Below, one piece after another: positions 4,504-32,412 of a stretch of 64,000 nucleotides of DNA. The notes under the pieces were generated by a model. It was given only the letters and a program-made list of their open reading frames with translations, searched no databases and was not told where the DNA came from. Source of the stretch: Candidatus Buchananbacteria bacterium RIFCSPHIGHO2_01_FULL_44_11 (GTDB lineage Bacteria > Patescibacteriota > Patescibacteriia > Buchananbacterales > UBA6539); contig MHIE01000019.1 in NCBI GenBank assembly GCA_001817345.1, forward strand, positions 10,380-74,379, in the 5' to 3' direction. The position numbers were made by a program, and so were the translations under genes. Numbering within the stretch: the stretch's first letter is position 1; each line of letters starts with the position of its first letter.

Positions 4504-4785
4504 ATGTCTCATAAAAAAGCAGGTGGTTCTACTAGTTTAGGCCGCGATTCACAAGCTCAAAGGCTGGGTATCAAATTATTTGACGGAGAAGTGGCTCAAC
4601 CGGGCAATATTTTGGTCCGCCAAAGAGGCAGCCGAGTCCGGCCGGGCCGCAATGTCAAAAAAGGTGGCGGCGACACTTTATTCGCTTTGACCAGCGGCAT
4701 GGTTAAGTTTACCAAAAAGAAAATCAAAAAATTCCATGGCCGGCTGGAATGGGCGCGGTTTGTCAGTATTATCCCAAAAAAATAA
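4504..4785 (+). CDS. rpmA: 50S ribosomal protein L27
   Basis: [29 protein letters not shown]...[10 protein letters not shown] is the canonical L27 sequence. Confidence 0.9.
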
Positions 4786-4804
4786 TCCAAATCAATGTAA
4801 CGTA

Positions 4805-4832
4805 AAGACGCCCTATTAGGGCGTCTTTTTTA
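4805..4832. terminator. Rho-independent terminator shared by convergent rpmA and pyrG
   Basis: Hairpin aagacgccctattagggcgtctt plus T6. Confidence 0.6.
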
Positions 4833-6579: not shown

Positions 6580-7020
6580 TCATTCGGCATTAATGATTAA
6601 GGTGATGCGGGAATCCAGACCATGATCAAGATTAATCACGACTTCATGCTCACCGATTTCTTTAATGTGTTGGGCTTGGATTTGCTCTTTTTGGACTGAA
6701 AAACCCTTGTCCTTCAAAGCGCCGGCGATTTTTAAGGCCGAAACCGAGGCGAATAAAGTACCGGATTCGCTGGCTTTAGCCGTAACTTCAACCACTTGAC
6801 CTTCCAACTGCTGGGCTAATTTCTCCGTTTTGGCTAAATCAGCCTCGGCCATATTAGATTCTTTCTCTTTTTCCAACTCAGCTTCTTTAATCGTTTCCGG
6901 CGTGGCTTCTTTAACTAAGCCCTTGGGCATTAAAAAATTACGAGCATAGCCGGTGGCCACCTCTTTAACATCATTTTTTTCTCCCAAATTGGGCACATTT
7001 TTCAGTAAAATTACTTTCAT
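6580..7020 (-). CDS. rplI: 50S ribosomal protein L9
   Basis: MKVILLKNVPNLGEKNDVKEVATGYARNFLMPKG is the canonical L9 N-domain. Confidence 0.85.
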   Translation of the reverse strand: MKVILLKNVPNLGEKNDVKEVATGYARNFLMPKGLVKEATPETIKEAELEKEKESNMAEADLAKTEKLAQQLEGQVVEVTAKASESGTLFASVSALKIAGALKDKGFSVQKEQIQAQHIKEIGEHEVVINLDHGLDSRITLIINAE

Positions 7021-8601: not shown

Positions 8602-9867
8602 TTATTCAGCGCGCAAAATTTCCAAGGCCCTATCCAGTTGCGGATCTTTGTCTTGGTCGTAATCTTCCCGGGTTCTTTCCACTTTAATATCCGGCTCAAT
8701 ACCCTTCTCGTTAATCTGCCGATCTTTGGGCGTCAGCCATTCAGCAATGGTCAATTTAACCGAAGAACCGTCTTTAAACTCTCGCAGGTCTTGAACCGAA
8801 CCTTTGCCAAAAGTAGTTTCACCCACAATGGTCGCGGCACCATAATCCTGCAAAGCGCCGGCCACAATTTCCGAACCAGACGCGCTGCCTTTATTCACCA
8901 AGACTACGGTGGGAATACCACTAAGACGCGCCTGGCGATTAGCCCGATGTTCCAGACTAGTACCATCTCTTAATCTTTCTTTAACCACCACTTGACCATT
9001 GATCCATTCACCGGAAATCTCAATGGCGGTGTTTAAAAACCCGCCCGGATTGTTGCGTAAATCCAAAATAATGCCTTTGGCGCCGGCGGCTAAAATTTTC
9101 TGAACGGTTTTATTCCAGTCGGCCAAAGTATTCTCGTTAAAATAAAGCAGCTCAATATAGGCAATTTGACCTTCAAGCAACAAGTCCGCTTGGCTTTCTT
9201 CAACTGGGGTACCATCCGGCCGGGCAATTCTAACGCTGTCAATCTCAATTTGATCACGGACGATTTTTATTTCTTTGGGCTCGCTGTCGCCATTAGACAG
9301 AACCGTTAAAATAACAGTCGTGCCTTTTTGGCCGCGAATCAGATTAACGGCGTGGTCTAAAGAAATAGTACTGGTATCCAGACCGTCAATAGCGTAAACT
9401 TTGTCGCCGGCCAAAAGGCCGGACTGTTCCGCCGGCGTGCCGGGCAGAGGCGCAATAATTGTCAGCTGGTTATCTTTCATGCCGATCTCAGCGCCAATGC
9501 CTTCAAAATTACCCGACAGCTCATCAGAAAATTTGGTGGCAATCTCCGGGTCTAAAAATATTGAATAAGGATCGCCTAAAGAAGCGACAATGCCGGCCAA
9601 AGCGCCGTAGAAAAGCTGGGTCTCCGGCACATCGTCTTTGACGTAATTTTCCTTAACGTAATTCCAAACTGTCCAGAACTGCTGGAAATCAACGTCTTGG
9701 CTTAAAAATTCGGGCATTGTTTGAGTGTTCGAGACAGAACCGGCCACCGGATTGAACTTATTCACCAGCCGGTTATTGCCAAAAACCGTACCGGACAAAA
9801 AAGCGAAGAATATTAAAATGGCAATAATATTGCCGACAATAAATAACTTGGTAAATTTGTTAAACAT
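8602..9867 (-). CDS. ctpA: Carboxyl-terminal processing peptidase (S41 family) with PDZ domain
   Basis: N-terminal TM; PDZ region; S41 motifs VLVNKGSASGSEIVAGALQD and TFGKGSVQ. Confidence 0.85.
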   Translation of the reverse strand: MFNKFTKLFIVGNIIAILIFFAFLSGTVFGNNRLVNKFNPVAGSVSNTQTMPEFLSQDVDFQQFWTVWNYVKENYVKDDVPETQLFYGALAGIVASLGDPYSIFLDPEIATKFSDELSGNFEGIGAEIGMKDNQLTIIAPLPGTPAEQSGLLAGDKVYAIDGLDTSTISLDHAVNLIRGQKGTTVILTVLSNGDSEPKEIKIVRDQIEIDSVRIARPDGTPVEESQADLLLEGQIAYIELLYFNENTLADWNKTVQKILAAGAKGIILDLRNNPGGFLNTAIEISGEWINGQVVVKERLRDGTSLEHRANRQARLSGIPTVVLVNKGSASGSEIVAGALQDYGAATIVGETTFGKGSVQDLREFKDGSSVKLTIAEWLTPKDRQINEKGIEPDIKVERTREDYDQDKDPQLDRALEILRAE

Positions 9868-9926: not shown

Positions 9927-11231
9927 TTATTCTATTCGCTTGATTTTGGCGCCAAGCTTAGTCAGTCGGTCGCACAGATCTTCGTAACCTCTTTCGATGG
10001 AATAAACGTTTCTTAAAATTGACTCACCTTCGGCCGCCAGCATTGCCACCAGAATAATCGTGGCCGGACGCAGAGCCGGCGGGCAGATTATCTCATTACC
10101 CCGCAAAGGCGTCGGACCGGTGATATAAACCCGATGAGGATCAACCAGGTTAATTTTTGCCCCCAGTTTATTGAGCTCGGTAAAATAAATCGCTCTTTCT
10201 TCATAAACCCAATCGAAAATAAACGTCGTGCCTTTGGCCTGGGTCGCAATCGGCGTAAAAAACGGCAAATTGTCGATATTAAGTCCAGGGAAAGACTGGG
10301 GATGAATTTTTTCTTCCAAAGCCACTAGCTCACTCCTGAAAGTCTGAAGATCAGCTAGATTACTCTGGCCATTTTTGGCTTTATAACTTTTCAAAATCTT
10401 ATACTTAAAACCCATTTTTTTTAATTTCAGCAATTCCAGCTCCAAAAAATCAATCGGACAACGTTTAATCGTGATGGAAGAATTGGTCGTTGCCGCTAAA
10501 GCGATAAAAAGCATTGACTCGATCGGGTCTTCGGTCAGCTGGTAAGTCACGTCTTTTTTAATTGACCGGCGGCCCTCAATTTCCAAAGTCGTGCTGCCGA
10601 TGCCGCTGATTTTAACGCCTAATTTTTTCAAAAAATAACAAAGGTCTTGGACCTGGTAGTTAGCCGAGGCAAATTTAATCGTGGTTTTGCCGGAAATCTT
10701 GGCGGCGGCCATAATTGCGTTTTCCGTCACGGTATCACCGGACTCATACAAAACTAAGTTTTTTACCGGATGTAAACCAGAGCTTTTGACCAAATAATGC
10801 TTGCGTAAGGTTTCAATTCTGACGCCAAATTCTTCTAGAGCATAAAGATGCGGCTTAACCGTTCTTTTGCCCAGCCGGCAGCCGCCCGGCTGAGGAATTT
10901 TAAAAGACTTCTTGAAACTCAATAAAACAGACAATAAAAACAAAATGCTCCGGGTTTTAATCGCCGACTGATAATTGATATTGTCTAAATTTAACTGCTT
11001 GGGCGGCTTGATTAGTAAATTGCTTTTACCAAACCAGCGGATTTCCACACCAATGCTTTCCAGAACTTCGATAATCCGGTTGACTTCTTCAATTTTAGGC
11101 ACCTGGATTAACTTAGTTGTGCCCTGGTTTAACAAAGCGGCATTCAATAAAACCACCGCCGCATTCTTGGAGGCGTTAGTTGTGATCGTGCCGTGCAATT
11201 TGGCCCCGCCGGAAATAATGAAACTGCTCAT
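9927..11231 (-). CDS. murA: UDP-N-acetylglucosamine 1-carboxyvinyltransferase
   Basis: MSSFIISGGAKLHGTITTNASKNAAVVLLNAALL N-terminus and EPSP-synthase fold repeats. Confidence 0.9.
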   Translation of the reverse strand: MSSFIISGGAKLHGTITTNASKNAAVVLLNAALLNQGTTKLIQVPKIEEVNRIIEVLESIGVEIRWFGKSNLLIKPPKQLNLDNINYQSAIKTRSILFLLSVLLSFKKSFKIPQPGGCRLGKRTVKPHLYALEEFGVRIETLRKHYLVKSSGLHPVKNLVLYESGDTVTENAIMAAAKISGKTTIKFASANYQVQDLCYFLKKLGVKISGIGSTTLEIEGRRSIKKDVTYQLTEDPIESMLFIALAATTNSSITIKRCPIDFLELELLKLKKMGFKYKILKSYKAKNGQSNLADLQTFRSELVALEEKIHPQSFPGLNIDNLPFFTPIATQAKGTTFIFDWVYEERAIYFTELNKLGAKINLVDPHRVYITGPTPLRGNEIICPPALRPATIILVAMLAAEGESILRNVYSIERGYEDLCDRLTKLGAKIKRIE

Positions 11232-27984: not shown

Positions 27985-28371
27985 TGCGAGGAGTCCTAGT
28001 TGTGCCAAGTTGACGAAGCAATCTAGCTAATCCCAGTCGCCGCTCAAATCTTTCCAATCAGGATTACTAGAATTAATTAAATTAATCTTATCCTGCCGAG
28101 AACCACCTTTAATCTGCTTTTCCCTAGAAATAGCGGCGTTAATATCATTACATTCTTCAAAATAGACTAGCTTGTTGACATTGTATTTACTCGTAAAACC
28201 TTCGATCAATTTATTTTTATGTTCGTAGATTCGTCTTGCCAAATCATTAGTCACGCCAGCATAAGTCACCGTATTACCTTTGTTAGTTAACAAATAAACG
28301 TAATAGTTCCTTGCACCCATATAATAACTAGATTGCTTCGTCGCTCCTTGGGTCGCTCCTCGCAATGACAC
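27980..28371 (-). mobile_element. TIR-bounded element carrying a GIY-YIG nuclease gene, putative autonomous member of the gtcattgcgag MITE family
   Basis: Outer IR gtcattgcgagga / tcctcgcaatgac and perfect 15-bp inner IR gacgaagcaatctag / ctagattgcttcgtc exactly bracket the GIY-YIG ORF. It is inserted with 0 nt spacing between the VanZ-like gene and the GT4 gene. Confidence 0.55.
28027..28323 (-). CDS. GIY-YIG nuclease, YhbQ/UPF0213-like
   Basis: YVYLLTNKGNTVTYAGVTNDLARRIYEHK GIY-YIG motif and KLVYFEE...REKQIKGGSR. The ORF-track N-terminal extension (GTG at 28371) is read-through of the TIR; probable start at MGARNYYVY. Confidence 0.7.
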   Translation of the reverse strand, partial: YMGARNYYVYLLTNKGNTVTYAGVTNDLARRIYEHKNKLIEGFTSKYNVNKLVYFEECNDINAAISREKQIKGGSRQDKINLINSSNPDWKDLSGDWD

Positions 28372-29526
28372 TTAAGTTAGGCTTCTATAAAGTGCGTCAA
28401 GCTGCTGGCCAATTTTATCCCAGTCGTAATTTTGTTCAACTTTATTTCTGCCTTCCAGGCCAAACTGCTTAGCGACGCCCTGATTGACCAATAAGTAATT
28501 GATCTTGGTGGCTAAGTCATCCGGATCCTTGGGTTTGACTAAATAACCGTTGATTTTATCACTAACCACGCTGCGGACACCGGCTAAATTGGTGGCGACC
28601 ACCGGTTTAGCGCAACTCATGCCTTCGACTAAGGTCAAACCAAACGCTTCAGACTTATCAATGGAGGGCAAAACTACCACGTCAGCTAAATTGTAATACT
28701 GGGGTAAGTCAGAGTTAGCGACGTACCCGGTAAAAATTGTTTTGTAATCAATCAAAAGCTGACCGGCTAAGTCCGCATAATGTTTCTTTAGTTCCCCCGC
28801 TCCGACAACGACTAACTTCCATTTATAGGCCGCTTGTTTGAGCCGGCTCATCGCTTCAATCAAATACTCCACACCCTTAAAATAGTGGGCTTTATCCAAG
28901 CCACCGACAAATAAGACCACCGATTCGTCCAGTTCAATCTGATGCCGACTTAACAGCTCGGGATTTTTGGGGCTGGGTAAAAATTTTTGGCTATCAACGC
29001 CATTAGGCACTTCGATAAACTTTTGCGGACTTTTAGTCAAAAGACCGGCGATATTAGAATGCTGAGCATAGTCTAAAGACGTGACAATGACTTTATCAGC
29101 CCGGCGAATTATCCGCGGCAAAATGATTCTATTATGAACCCCAAAAAAAAATTTAAGCAGTCCCTGACCGACAACGTCCATGTGATAATGCAAAACAATT
29201 TTTGCCCCTGACTTTTTCAATTTTTTAGCGTGCAGCCAAATCAATTCCGCCCCGCCAAAATAAGGGTAATGCAGATGAATAATTTCAAAACCTTTAAGCA
29301 AACCGGCCAACCCGGGTGTAAAAGCGGCATTGCCGTATTTAATCAAGGGCTTCAGCCGCCTGATATTTAAATCCGGCAGCTCTTCTTGTTTAATCGGAGC
29401 ATATTCCGGAGTAAAAATAGTGACCTGATGGCCAAGCTTAATCAAAGCCTTGGCGTTATAAGCCGCCACATTACCAATACCGCCGGCATAGGGCGGAAAA
29501 GTTGAAGTAACAATAGCGATTTTCAT
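28372..29526 (-). CDS. Glycosyltransferase family 4
   Basis: MKIAIVTSTFPPYAGGIGNV N-terminus; C-terminal GT-B motifs. Confidence 0.8.
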   Translation of the reverse strand: MKIAIVTSTFPPYAGGIGNVAAYNAKALIKLGHQVTIFTPEYAPIKQEELPDLNIRRLKPLIKYGNAAFTPGLAGLLKGFEIIHLHYPYFGGAELIWLHAKKLKKSGAKIVLHYHMDVVGQGLLKFFFGVHNRIILPRIIRRADKVIVTSLDYAQHSNIAGLLTKSPQKFIEVPNGVDSQKFLPSPKNPELLSRHQIELDESVVLFVGGLDKAHYFKGVEYLIEAMSRLKQAAYKWKLVVVGAGELKKHYADLAGQLLIDYKTIFTGYVANSDLPQYYNLADVVVLPSIDKSEAFGLTLVEGMSCAKPVVATNLAGVRSVVSDKINGYLVKPKDPDDLATKINYLLVNQGVAKQFGLEGRNKVEQNYDWDKIGQQLDALYRSLT

Positions 29527-29689
29527 ACCCAGTAGTGAAACTTTGATTTAATAATTATATCGCCGGCAATAATAGCTAAATAAGGTTTACTCTACTATAA
29601 TAATTTTGCCTAGTAGTCTTTAACCGCCCGCTGTGGCGGGCGGTATTATCAAATTTTCACTACTGGGCATACCAATATATTAACATTTT

Positions 29690-30703
29690 TTAAAACAGTT
29701 GACCACCAATATTCCTGATCCGATTCACTAACTTTTTAGCGTTACCATGGCTTAGTAGCCCAAGATACGACTGAACCGTGTCAATATTCCCCTCTTTCAT
29801 TTGAACATTTCGGAGCATGCGCCTTTTTGTCGCCGTTCGAAGTATGCGATGGTCAAAAAAGTGTACCCACCCCAAAAAATCCACACCAGAGGTAATAGTT
29901 TTAATAAATAGCTTATCAGGATGTAATTCGAGCCGCAATTTGTCCATTAAAAAATTTCTCACCACCAGTAGAGTATTCTGAAGCCATATTTTATCATCAG
30001 ACAAAAAAACAAAATCATCTGCATAACGGATATAATATTTGACTTTAAGCTGGTGTTTTACGAACTGATCGAATTCATTCATGTAAACATTAACCAGTAG
30101 TTGTGAAGTTAGGTTGCCGAGTGGCAAGCCCCTGCCTTTTTCAGTTGAATTAAAACTTGAAACAATTTTGAAGATAAGCCAACGGATATCAACATCCGAA
30201 ATGTAACAACTAATGATTTCAAACAACACTGCTTGATTAATTGAAGCAAAAAATTTTTTAATGTCACACTTTAACACCCACACTGTTCGGGTATGGTTAA
30301 ATGATGCCTTATAGGCAAAATTTCGAAACTGACTAATTGCTTTATGGGTGCCTTTATCAAGACGGCACGAGTACGAATCGGCAATAAAAGTTTTATCGAA
30401 GAACGGATATAAAATTCTATAAATAGCATGATGTAGCAGTCTATCTCGTACGCTGGCTTTATGAATATTCCTTGGTTTGGGATCAGAAATATTAAACGCC
30501 TGGTATGGCGAGTGTTGATAGGTTTTATTTGCTAAATCTTGATAAAGTGTTAAGATATTAGCCATCAAATTCAATTCAAATTGTTGCACGTCTTTGTGTG
30601 ACCGCTTGCCGCACAAAAATTCCTTCCAGGCCTTGAGTAAATTCTCAGCCGAAATAATATCTTCGTACTCATTAGTAAATTGAAGCCTTCCCATATATGC
30701 CAT
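29690..30703 (-). CDS. Diversity-generating retroelement reverse transcriptase
   Basis: RT motifs PKPRNIHKASVRDRLLHHA, LPLGNLTSQLLVNVYM (the [IL]GxxxSQ variant typical of DGR RTs) and IRYADDFVFL (YxDD). 337 aa with no maturase/X domain. TR/VR pair lies adjacent. Confidence 0.85.
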   Translation of the reverse strand: MAYMGRLQFTNEYEDIISAENLLKAWKEFLCGKRSHKDVQQFELNLMANILTLYQDLANKTYQHSPYQAFNISDPKPRNIHKASVRDRLLHHAIYRILYPFFDKTFIADSYSCRLDKGTHKAISQFRNFAYKASFNHTRTVWVLKCDIKKFFASINQAVLFEIISCYISDVDIRWLIFKIVSSFNSTEKGRGLPLGNLTSQLLVNVYMNEFDQFVKHQLKVKYYIRYADDFVFLSDDKIWLQNTLLVVRNFLMDKLRLELHPDKLFIKTITSGVDFLGWVHFFDHRILRTATKRRMLRNVQMKEGNIDTVQSYLGLLSHGNAKKLVNRIRNIGGQLF

Positions 30704-30727
30704 ATTCTACCCCCCCACCCAGCGATT

Positions 30728-31090
30728 TTGCCAGTGTTACAAAAAATAAAAAGTGCTTATCTACTATGGTACGGCTACTACCAAACACTACCAAAAACCC
30801 AGCGCTATTCACTGGGTCAAAGAATTGATACGTTATTTATAGAGATTATCGAAGCGGTTGCCACCGCCAGTTTTTTGGTACGGCAGGAAAAAATACCCTA
30901 TGTTCGACGAGCCATCCAAAAACTCGACACGCTCAAAATACTGTTGATGGTATTGTGGGAAACAAAGACGTTAGACAATAAAAAATACATAGCTCTGTCG
31001 GCGCCACTAGATGAAATCGGTAAAATGCTAGGCGGCTGGAACGGCCAATTAGTAAAACAAAACTCCCTCGAAAGGCCGAGGGAGAAATAA
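30728..31090 (+). CDS. Avd-like accessory variability determinant (four-helix bundle)
   Basis: Basic ~120 aa protein. C-terminal ...LDEIGKMLGGWNGQLVKQN parallels Bordetella bAvd ...IAEVGRILGSWIARVNRK. It lies between RT and TR. No in-frame ATG; TTG (30728) or GTG (30734) start assumed. ORF-track start 30680 overlaps the RT start. Confidence 0.55.
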   Translation: MPVLQKIKSAYLLWYGYYQTLPKTQRYSLGQRIDTLFIEIIEAVATASFLVRQEKIPYVRRAIQKLDTLKILLMVLWETKTLDNKKYIALSAPLDEIGKMLGGWNGQLVKQNSLERPREK

Positions 31091-31098
31091 AGTCAGTG

Positions 31099-31232
31099 GC
31101 TGGGACGAGGAACAGGAATCCGTTCTCACGATTCCACCTGTCGTCGGGGTTGCCGTTGAATGTGTTCAACCAGCGACCATCGTCGTTACGGTTCAGACCG
31201 AGCAGGTTCAGGTTGCCGTTCGAGTCGGTAAT
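31099..31232 (-). repeat. DGR template repeat (TR)
   Basis: 134-bp homolog of 31591-31724. Carries A (on - strand) at all 22 mismatch positions. Encodes Asn(AAC)-rich ...SNGNLNLLGLNRNDDGRWLNTFNGNPDDRWNRENGFLFLVPA. Confidence 0.85.
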
Positions 31233-31471
31233 ATGTACAGTATGTCATCTATGCCACCGCCCCTTGAGTACTCTTAGGGTTGTATCGTATTTGGCATCGT
31301 AATGCCCTAACACACTGTACCAAGTAACTTCGTTTTTTAGCACCACATCCTACGCTATCTCAATCCGCCAACCGGCGGACGGAGATACTCTGAGATATAT
31401 GGATACTGGATTCGGTAGCGGAAAGCCTTAACTATCCGCATATTCACCTACTACCATTTTTAGTATAACAG

Positions 31472-31514
31472 AAAATAAATCACCCCGCATCTTCATACAA
31501 GACAGATGCGGGGC
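31472..31514 (-). terminator. GC-rich hairpin plus T-run 70-110 nt downstream of VR (terminator and/or DGR homing-associated stem-loop)
   Basis: ccccgcatc...gatgcgggg 9-bp stem followed on - strand by atttatttt. Confidence 0.4.
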
Positions 31515-31580
31515 GTTGTTCGGAAAGTCCAAGGACTAAATCCAAGGGTCAAAAAGACCCAAGAACCCAAGTCCAAAGGA

Positions 31581-32205
31581 CTAGTTACTTGCTGGGACGA
31601 GGAACAGGAATCCGCGCCCACGACTCCACCCGCCGTCGGGGCGGCCGTCGAAAGTGTTCAACCAGCGACCACCGACGCAACGGCGCAGACCGAGCAGGCT
31701 CAGGAAGCCGCACGAGACGGAAACCGGCTGGTGCATGACGATCAGAGCCCACAGCCCCATCTGTTCGAGGTCTTCGTCTGAGAACATCTCGCGCACATAC
31801 GGTGCCAACTCGACCGAGGGGTCAAGATAGCCGCGCTTGGCCGCCTCAACCCTGATATTCTCGTTGGTGCGTTTGTCGTCCTCGAACTCGTCGCCCATGA
31901 TAAGCGCAAGCTTGTAGGCCTTGCCGTCGGTGGCGACGAACTCTTTACCGCGAAGCAGTTCCTGGGCGTAGTCGTCGACACGATCACCCTGGACTTCGAG
32001 ATCGGTGATGTGCTGGTCGCCTGAACGACCGTTGGTCGTGACCTCAAAGGTCTTGGGTACGCCGAACGGATTTTCTCCGCGCAGGAATCGCTTCAAGCGA
32101 CGGAGCCACATCGTGCCTTTCGGGCCAGCGAGTTTGTCCTCGATATCTTTTCTCGGTCCCTGAGTGTCAGAGAGCGAGAGGTTGCCGAGCATACCTTGCG
32201 ACATG
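31581..32205 (-). CDS. DGR target (variable) protein, GC-rich, 208 aa
   Basis: VR is the last ~45 codons (...SCGFLSLLGLRRCVGGRWLNTFDGRPDGGWSRGRGFLFLVPASN*). AGGAGG RBS 6 nt upstream of ATG at 32205 and extended -10 TGgCATAAT. The ORF-track N-terminal extension into 32288 is not supported. Confidence 0.7.
31591..31724 (-). repeat. DGR variable repeat (VR) at 3' end of target gene
   Basis: 22 of 22 differences from TR fall at TR adenines. It ends 7 nt before the stop codon. Confidence 0.85.
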
Positions 32206-32283
32206 GTCAGTCCTCCTCTTCTTTCATTGAGATTATGCCAGCGGACTACTAGGTAGTCATAGCCAGAAAACACTGATCCACAT

Positions 32284-32365
32284 GTCATTGCGAGCGAAGC
32301 GAAGCAATCTCTTTGGTTGTAGATTGCTTCGTCCCCCGACGTAAAGTCGGGGTCCTCGCAATGAC
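32284..32365. repeat. Minimal (82 bp) member of the gtcattgcgag MITE family
   Basis: gtcattgcgag-cgaagcgaagcaatct...agattgcttcgtcc...cctcgcaatgac; the inner IRs are nearly juxtaposed. Located just upstream of the DGR target promoter. Confidence 0.5.
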
Positions 32366-32412
32366 ACGAAAAATGGGTGGCTTTTGGCTATGACTACTGT
32401 TTTTACAAGCTT

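Follow-up and report, generated by a model that had tools for sequence, protein, structure and literature searches.

A diversity-generating retroelement of the CPR B3 type in Candidatus Buchananbacteria, with a proposed leader RNA upstream of its template repeat

We analysed a stretch of 64,000 nucleotides from Candidatus Buchananbacteria bacterium RIFCSPHIGHO2_01_FULL_44_11 (contig MHIE01000019.1, positions 10,380 to 74,379), referred to below as the window. It very probably carries a genuine chromosomal diversity-generating retroelement (DGR) of the B3 type found in the candidate phyla radiation (CPR), which was once active and is now probably quiescent or rarely active, and for which we propose an RNA organised by a structured leader. 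All coordinates are those of the window, and the minus strand is the coding strand of the reverse transcriptase (RT), the target gene, the template repeat (TR) and the variable repeat (VR). Read along this strand, the target gene with its C-terminal VR comes first, followed by the structured leader and the TR; the avd gene, encoded on the plus strand, is next, and the RT gene is last. A preliminary description of the region near 29690-32205 had proposed a complete DGR formed by RT, Avd, TR and VR, and each of these components was verified. Comparisons were made throughout at the level of sequences and assemblies, loci L001 to L043 being contigs as labelled in our analysis.

Adenine-specific repeats and their variation among relatives

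The TR (31232-31099, minus strand) and the VR (31724-31591, minus strand) align without gaps at a fixed offset of exactly 492 nt, confirming the repeat pair as it was first reported. The number of differences between them, originally given as 22, is 24 (23 when the first, boundary position 31232/31724 is left out). As anticipated in the preliminary description, every one of the 24 falls on an adenine of the TR, where the VR presents G (13 cases), T (8) or C (3) on the minus strand; the chance of finding 24 of 24 mismatches on A is 1.9e-19 (hypergeometric). Altogether, 24 of the 33 adenines of the TR are altered in the VR, and 23 of the 24 mismatches affect the first or second position of a codon in the reading frame of the target. 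The peptide read in the TR frame, ITDSNGNLNLLGLNRNDDGRWLNTFNGNPDDRWNRENGFLFLVPA, is rich in asparagine (10 AAC codons), while the VR encodes VSVSCGFLSLLGLRRCVGGRWLNTFDGRPDGGWSRGRGFLFLVPASN followed by the stop codon, both as previously stated. The 3'-terminal 23 nt are the same in the two repeats, which diverge from there on; this identity had also been noted, and the window contains no further copy of the 23-mer. The target gene (31581-32204, minus strand; 207 amino acids plus the stop) ends with the VR, which makes up its final ~45 codons, so that the C-terminal position of the VR stands as described; the ATG is at 32204 and not at 32205.

The same layout appears in five independent homologous loci (L002, L012/13, L017, L018 and L019/20), chosen by similarity of the target protein and fetched with their flanks: the target is followed by a spacer of ~350 nt, a TR located ~500 nt past the VR, an inverted avd and the RT. 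Both RT and avd were detected in four of the five loci, and avd only in L002. Mismatches at TR adenines account for 12/13, 9/11, 19/20, 17/18 and 16/16 of the TR/VR differences, in the order of the loci given above. Architecture B3, defined as TR-(avd)-RT with a reverse-strand avd, represents 90% of the CPR DGR set and is almost never seen elsewhere (Wu et al. 2018, PMC5758913). Since avd is inverted between TR and RT in the window as well, we consider its element a standard CPR-type DGR. As a side observation, the complete cassettes of L017 (1-5800) and L018 (1-2900) lie beside ParB-methyltransferase, terminase-like and serine-recombinase genes, pointing, for some members of the family, to a phage or mobile-element setting.

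The element was clearly active in the past. For its recent behaviour, the 90%-identity cluster of the target comprises six protein variants, at 98-100% identity and drawn from at least 7 assemblies. Five scaffold residues differ among them and none in the VR, where the assembly consensus presents no variation at TR-adenine sites in any of the six variants. Loci that are 99.1-99.9% identical to the window over 4.7-6 kb have an identical TR and leader, and none of the 5 loci carries a VR change at an A site; the VR of near-identical loci is the same save for one synonymous C>A change, at a non-adenine site, in L006. Two sister clusters display VR differences over an unchanged scaffold: P0026 and P0039 differ at 0 of 155 scaffold positions and at 3 of 48 VR positions, all of them at codons with an adenine in the TR of that lineage (AGG, AAT and ATC), and P0018 and P0044 differ at 0 of 165 and 2 of 48 positions, respectively. 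The members of a cluster whose locus has no RT have 0 VR differences and 1-2 scaffold differences. With a VR that is fixed while the scaffold varies, as in this RT-less cluster, the window lineage behaves as the frozen class, and to judge from these consensus sequences the element is now probably quiescent or rarely active in it.

A rather unlikely alternative, though the strongest of those we considered, is that the DGR is fully active today and that the invariant VR reflects strong selection in favour of a single dominant allele, or minority variants masked by the calling of a consensus. Indeed, its parts look intact (the RT and avd reading frames are open, YADD is present and 61 of the 64 consensus pairs form in the leader), the TR and the leader do not vary from strain to strain, and sister lineages with the same cassette show VR changes only, at A sites. 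However, the VR is identical in at least 7 assemblies whose scaffolds differ at up to 5 residues, it is still the same in one strain that has diverged by ~1% over 4.7 kb, and it is also carried by a co-occurring variant without the module; moreover, the pattern fits that of the RT-less orphan cluster. Two properties of the data weigh against quiescence: assemblies give consensus alleles, so low-frequency VR variants could exist, and the assemblies may derive from one site or be re-assemblies of overlapping samples.

Probable quiescence can be set beside cases in which the diversifying module is missing. Locus L005, a co-occurring strain variant, has the same target and VR as the window, switches at 31524 to a segment of 59 nt and rejoins the window at 29690, with leader, TR, avd and RT gone. 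The 59-nt segment (4765-4823), which replaces 1.83 kb (31524-29691 in the window), contains a different terminator hairpin, one not present in the window. Past the junction the contig runs on for 117 nt, and an assembly artefact is possible. L014-16 are syntenic with L012 and lack avd and RT. In L001 the target is immediately followed by one half of a leader (nhmmer E 1.7e-6), and no cassette lies within 6 kb of the target of L010. Considered together, these loci indicate that loss of the diversifier with retention of the target recurs in the family. The family provides a series for studying when hypermutation is kept or dropped in reduced symbiont genomes, from active cassettes with VR-only changes, through the intact, apparently frozen cassette of the window and a strain-level deletion, to orphans with remnants.

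A structured leader directly upstream of the template

The 222 nt immediately 5' of the TR (31234-31455, minus strand) constitute a leader RNA predicted to fold into ~9 helices. In the family loci, the spacer between VR and TR that contains it is conserved far above the flanking proteins. A leader pattern (TAGGYGAATA, a gap of 23-27 nt and CCGAATCCAGT), run as an exact search, was found at no fewer than 120 places of the metagenome collection, corresponding to at least 113 distinct sequences, and had 0 matches in the viral contig collection. About 80 of the 113 distinct instances have a detectable TR 215-260 nt past the motif, and nearly all of these also have a VR ~250 nt upstream of it, with mismatches almost exclusively at A (for example 26/26, 25/25 and 24/24). 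Wherever the contig is long enough, these are followed by an avd in opposite orientation and then by an RT in the orientation of the leader; the rest are mostly short contigs. Most targets in the leader-bearing loci have no match to the target family of the window or are only 25-45% identical to it. Within the window, the leader is the single nhmmer match (E 8e-55). Rfam was scanned over 6 kb, over 601 nt with an E limit of 10 and over the whole window at gathering score, and none of the three scans matched the leader to a family; no description of it was found in the searchable literature, whose coverage of the relevant papers is incomplete; its novelty is thus provisional.

A consensus structure of 64 pairs in ~9 helices was obtained with RNAalifold from an alignment of 108 sequences. 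These pairs are canonical in 94.3% of cells, compared with 81.7% in column shuffles and 36-50% when the partners are slid, and 49 of the 64 change on both sides. Compensatory cells number 1019, as against 283 +/- 26 in the shuffles, and none of 500 shuffles reaches any of the observed measures. The window leader satisfies 61 of the 64 consensus pairs, and its helix 9 (31320-31309 with 31246-31235) ends 2 nt before the TR. Besides these local helices, a predicted long-range duplex connects the leader with the far side of the template: the post-TR strand ACUUUAUUU (31085-31093, minus strand) can pair with leader positions 31335-31327 (AAACGAAGU), the consensus being UCUUCAUUU with the leader segment AAAUGAAGA. 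Over 70 loci, the positions of this duplex are canonical in 81-99% of cases, and 6 of the 9 show 3-4 pair types; the window has one C-A mismatch. A second leader/post-TR pairing, GAGAGU-ACUCUC, was rejected on the grounds that its register is not kept in the window or its relatives and that it falls below the 80% canonical filter, and leader pairings with the U tract were set aside as trivial G/A-U matches.

Several signals flank the leader-TR unit. On the downstream side, a terminator scan located a terminator-like hairpin with a U tract (31054-31084, minus strand; 9-bp stem and 4-nt loop at 31084-31063) that is conserved in the 70 loci with variable stem sequence, and whose position fits the putative Avd-binding stem-loops just downstream of TR (Handa et al., bioRxiv 10.1101/2023.10.23.563531). 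On the upstream side, an extended -10-like box, TGTTATACT (31462-31470, minus strand), stands 6-7 nt before the first conserved base of the leader. In the spacer alignment, 5 of the 6 family loci share the TGnTAnAAT box, which we regard as the probable promoter of the DGR RNA. Between target and leader, a hairpin read from the sequence, CCCCGCATC...GATGCGGGG with a T-rich tail (31472-31513, minus strand; stem region 31513-31483), is probably the terminator of the target gene; an equivalent post-target hairpin occupies the same place in the family loci. Finally, a conserved non-coding stretch just past the VR (31524-31590, minus strand), which includes the hairpin GGGTC-T5-GACCC (31560-31546), is conserved in six family loci and kept in orphans. 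By analogy with the elements that follow the initiation of mutagenic homing (IMH) region in other DGRs, it is a candidate target-site element.

These features lead us to propose, tentatively, that the leader is a previously undescribed RNA family and the domain that organises RT and Avd in CPR B3 DGRs, as part of a topologically permuted DGR RNA with its own transcription unit. Mechanistically, a DGR RNA of ~400 nt would be produced as a separate unit, from the extended -10 promoter (31470-31462) to the hairpin and U tract (31084-31054). Its 222-nt leader would fold into ~9 helices, and the 7-9 bp duplex between leader and post-TR sequence would close the template into a loop. In turn, the RT-Avd complex would bind this RNA and copy the TR, misincorporating opposite adenines, and the resulting cDNA would replace the VR, anchored by the identical 23-nt 3' end and recoding up to ~20 codons at the surface of a small binding protein with a C-type-lectin fold. 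The 5' leader might in this way take over the function that the 3' spacer RNA has in the DGR of Bordetella phage BPP-1. If true, the template is preceded by the structured domain and followed by no more than the closing strand, one stem-loop and the terminator.

A different account, which we find improbable, would place the 222 nt outside the retroelement RNA, either as a 3' untranslated or regulatory element of the target or as an independent small RNA that travels with the cassette. The leader does follow the target gene immediately, some 20 nt of sequence before the TR are enough for the Bordetella system, and the connection between leader and reverse transcription is one that we infer. Yet between target and leader stand a hairpin resembling a terminator and an extended -10 box that is conserved, helix 9 is followed after 1-3 nt by the TR, and a leader segment can pair with the sequence just past the TR. 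Moreover, orphan targets without RT also lack the leader or keep fragments only, and the leader travels with TR-(avd)-RT beside mostly unrelated or distant targets. In at least one leader-bearing locus, L043 (motif at 6590, TR at 6805-6932, VR at 9557-9685), the VR lies ~2.7 kb downstream of the TR, not upstream, while the TR still directly follows the leader, indicating that the leader-TR unit holds together when the position of the target changes.

Some points count against the proposed explanation of the element. The leader structure was predicted from the same alignment used for the pair counts, and most leader sequences were gathered by exact matching to a motif of the leader, so that the breadth of the leader family is known within that anchor. 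The fold of the 5-bp hairpin past the VR is only weakly better than shuffles (z -1.98). Finally, the promoter, the RNA ends, the priming site and the binding of RT and Avd to the leader are all features that we infer. The strongly covarying leader marks this class of DGR and gives a sequence-based way to locate templates that does not depend on searching for RTs.

Separately, L019 has two leader copies (6790-7008 and 10223-10441), the second of which is divergent and located beside a second avd and an RT fragment, pointing to tandem or decaying cassettes.

Reverse transcriptase, Avd and target protein

The RT gene (29690-30703, minus strand) encodes 337 amino acids with LGNLTSQ and YADD motifs and no maturase region, in agreement with the preliminary description. 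The protein matches Pfam RVT_1 (E 5e-21) and is 33% identical to the Brt (bRT) of BPP-1 over its full length (E 2e-56). The [LIV]GxxxSQ motif is a hallmark of DGR RTs, and by sequence comparison LGNLTSQ and YADD fit the [LIV]GxxxSQ and YxDD features of that group. The best PDB match is a 328-residue 'Reverse transcriptase' in entries 8ub7-8ube (E 3e-46), which from its length we take to be the bRT-Avd complex; group II intron RTs follow at ~1e-21. Matches also include 93 phage records, among them five Bordetella phages as well as Vibrio, crAss-like, Bacteroides and Faecalibacterium phages; taken as groups, these phages are presumably DGR-bearing.

The idea that the repeats are an ordinary partial gene duplication next to a retron, group II intron or defence-system RT is effectively refuted: the matches to the NCBIfam group II, Drt and retron models that would favour it are all sub-threshold and far under the cut-offs (group II model TIGR04416, 141.7 bits against 300, over model positions 23-282 only and with the maturase part uncovered), the mismatches fall 24/24 on A (P 2e-19) in an ungapped alignment at the fixed offset of 492 that is no artefact, Avd is present, Rfam finds no group II intron or retron RNA in the window, and both the closest solved structure and most of the phage relatives listed are presumably DGR RTs.

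The avd gene (30734-31090, plus strand) encodes 118 amino acids from a GTG at 30734, with a longer reading frame starting at a TTG at 30680; gene callers also give 118 amino acids in the sister contigs. An Avd-like protein had been placed between RT and TR, which is correct as to position, while the strand is plus, inverted relative to RT, TR and VR. The gene is thus antiparallel to these elements, and its stop codon (31088-31090) is within 10 nt of the TR. Pfam bAvd recognises the protein with 42.5 bits (cut-off 40); NCBIfam DivGenRetAVD matches it as well (68.1 bits, E 7e-19), though under the curated cut-off of 80, a weak point of the assignment. No match to the Avd sequence was found among PDB sequences. 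The stop and last codons of avd overlap, in antisense, the post-TR pairing strand and hairpin (31054-31090), and on the plus strand there is no T tract past that hairpin, so avd transcripts might run into the TR as antisense.

The start codons of RT (ATG) and avd (GTG), which point away from each other, enclose 30 nt that include a G3-T-G7 tract (30710-30720, minus strand); this tract differs among near-identical strains, with GGT deleted in L003, T replaced by G in L004 and T deleted in L006. These differences may be real variation, perhaps linked to phase-variable expression, or homopolymer assembly error.

The target gene, with GAGGAGG preceding its start codon, encodes a protein that has no Pfam or NCBIfam family match and is identical to OGY45488.1 from a Candidatus Buchananbacteria metagenome-assembled genome. 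A structure model presents a short helical N-terminus followed by a compact C-type-lectin-fold domain; the fold prediction, which had been suggested for the C-terminus, favours this fold with modest scores and has TvpA among its structural matches. There are 33 detectable homologues, all those with a source name being Patescibacteria, and a target search of genome contigs matched two loci. Aligned members of the family share a conserved scaffold, and fixed and hypervariable positions alternate over their final ~45 residues (DSxGxLxLLGxxRxxxGRWLxAFxGxPDxxWxRxxGFLFLVPAS). As a minimal C-type-lectin-fold scaffold of ~155 amino acids, the target may interest engineers of DGR-based diversification.

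The composition of the target gene is also peculiar, with a GC content of 58% (73% at third codon positions) versus 37% in RT, 42% in avd and 42.5% in the window overall. The scaffold exceeds its flanks by 5-13 GC points in 8 of 8 family loci (L001, L002, L010, L012, L014 and L017-L019). Adenine avoidance was considered as the cause of this high GC and discarded, the AT skew of the scaffold showing none. A short scaffold segment of 77 nt (31899-31975) concentrates 4-6 of the 4-9 differences from strains that are 99.8-99.9% identical, including four non-synonymous changes (D105G, Q109K, A124T and L129I, in the numbering of a 235-residue reading frame). These changes are not adenine-specific and have no template, and the alternative allele is nearer to the family consensus; the cluster could be a recombination patch or the product of local selection.

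Repeated sequences were also noticed in three areas around the cassette (32253-32397, 28330-28371 and 29525-29670). Palindromic repeat sequences (..GATTGCTTCGCTTCGCTCGCAATGAC..) are found upstream of the target, with a 21-nt inverted repeat on the flanks. The N-terminal extension of a GIY-YIG nuclease reading frame is sequence related to these palindromic repeats, and downstream of the RT a 23-nt inverted repeat surrounds a GC hairpin. Over the whole 64 kb, ARAGORN found no tRNA gene, and no Rfam family reached its gathering score.

Comparison with known retroelements

The DGR in itself adds little to what is known, CPR genomes being rich in DGRs, which are well catalogued, and B3 their standard gene order. 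The window element has in common with the CPR B3 DGRs the gene order, the inverted avd and a Patescibacteria groundwater host, with no difference in gene architecture; in addition, both have a short target that lacks a recognisable domain and carries the VR at its C-terminus, and adenines at codon positions 1 and 2. The target family of the window, with its 33 members and no Pfam domain, may correspond to one of the unclassified 'UVR' groups of Wu et al. The structured leader is not mentioned in that work, where the terms 'RNA structure' and 'secondary structure' have 0 occurrences (Wu et al. 2018, PMC5758913). As for the target, the DGR variable proteins Mtd, TvpA and archaeal AvpA have C-type-lectin folds, the fold predicted for the window protein.

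A parallel to the leader is RF03022 Phage_DGR (the RT-10 motif; Weinberg et al. 2017, PMC5737381), likewise a structured non-coding RNA beside a DGR template and the presumed organiser of reverse transcription. It lies, however, on the other side of the TR, measures 127 nt versus the ~222 nt of the leader and has no detectable covariance-model similarity to it: as a control, the model finds the BPP-1 spacer between TR and brt with 104.7 bits, and in the 601-nt search of the window it has no match at E up to 10. The BPP-1 spacer, which follows the TR on its 3' side, envelops the RT and primes cDNA synthesis; it forms a stop element by pairing with ~11 nt upstream of the TR, and an Avd-binding stem-loop lies downstream of the TR. 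The accompanying survey of other DGRs covered 40 nt upstream and 100 nt downstream of the TR (bioRxiv 10.1101/2023.10.23.563531).

The likeness of the window element to the BPP-1 DGR (mtd-avd-TR-brt) extends to an RT with 33% identity, an Avd partner, a TR and VR of 134 nt, a VR at the C-terminus of a C-type-lectin-fold protein and repeats with an identical 3' end. The differences concern location and topology. The window element is chromosomal, whereas that of BPP-1 is in a phage tail-fibre gene, and avd is inverted and located between TR and RT. The large structured RNA domain is 5' of the TR in the window and 3' in BPP-1, and the upstream strand of the closing duplex lies ~95 nt before the TR instead of being adjacent to it. 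Because the inverted avd abuts the TR, B3 elements have no room for a 3' spacer, and the leader suggests how such compact elements arrange reverse transcription without a spacer of the Bordetella type.

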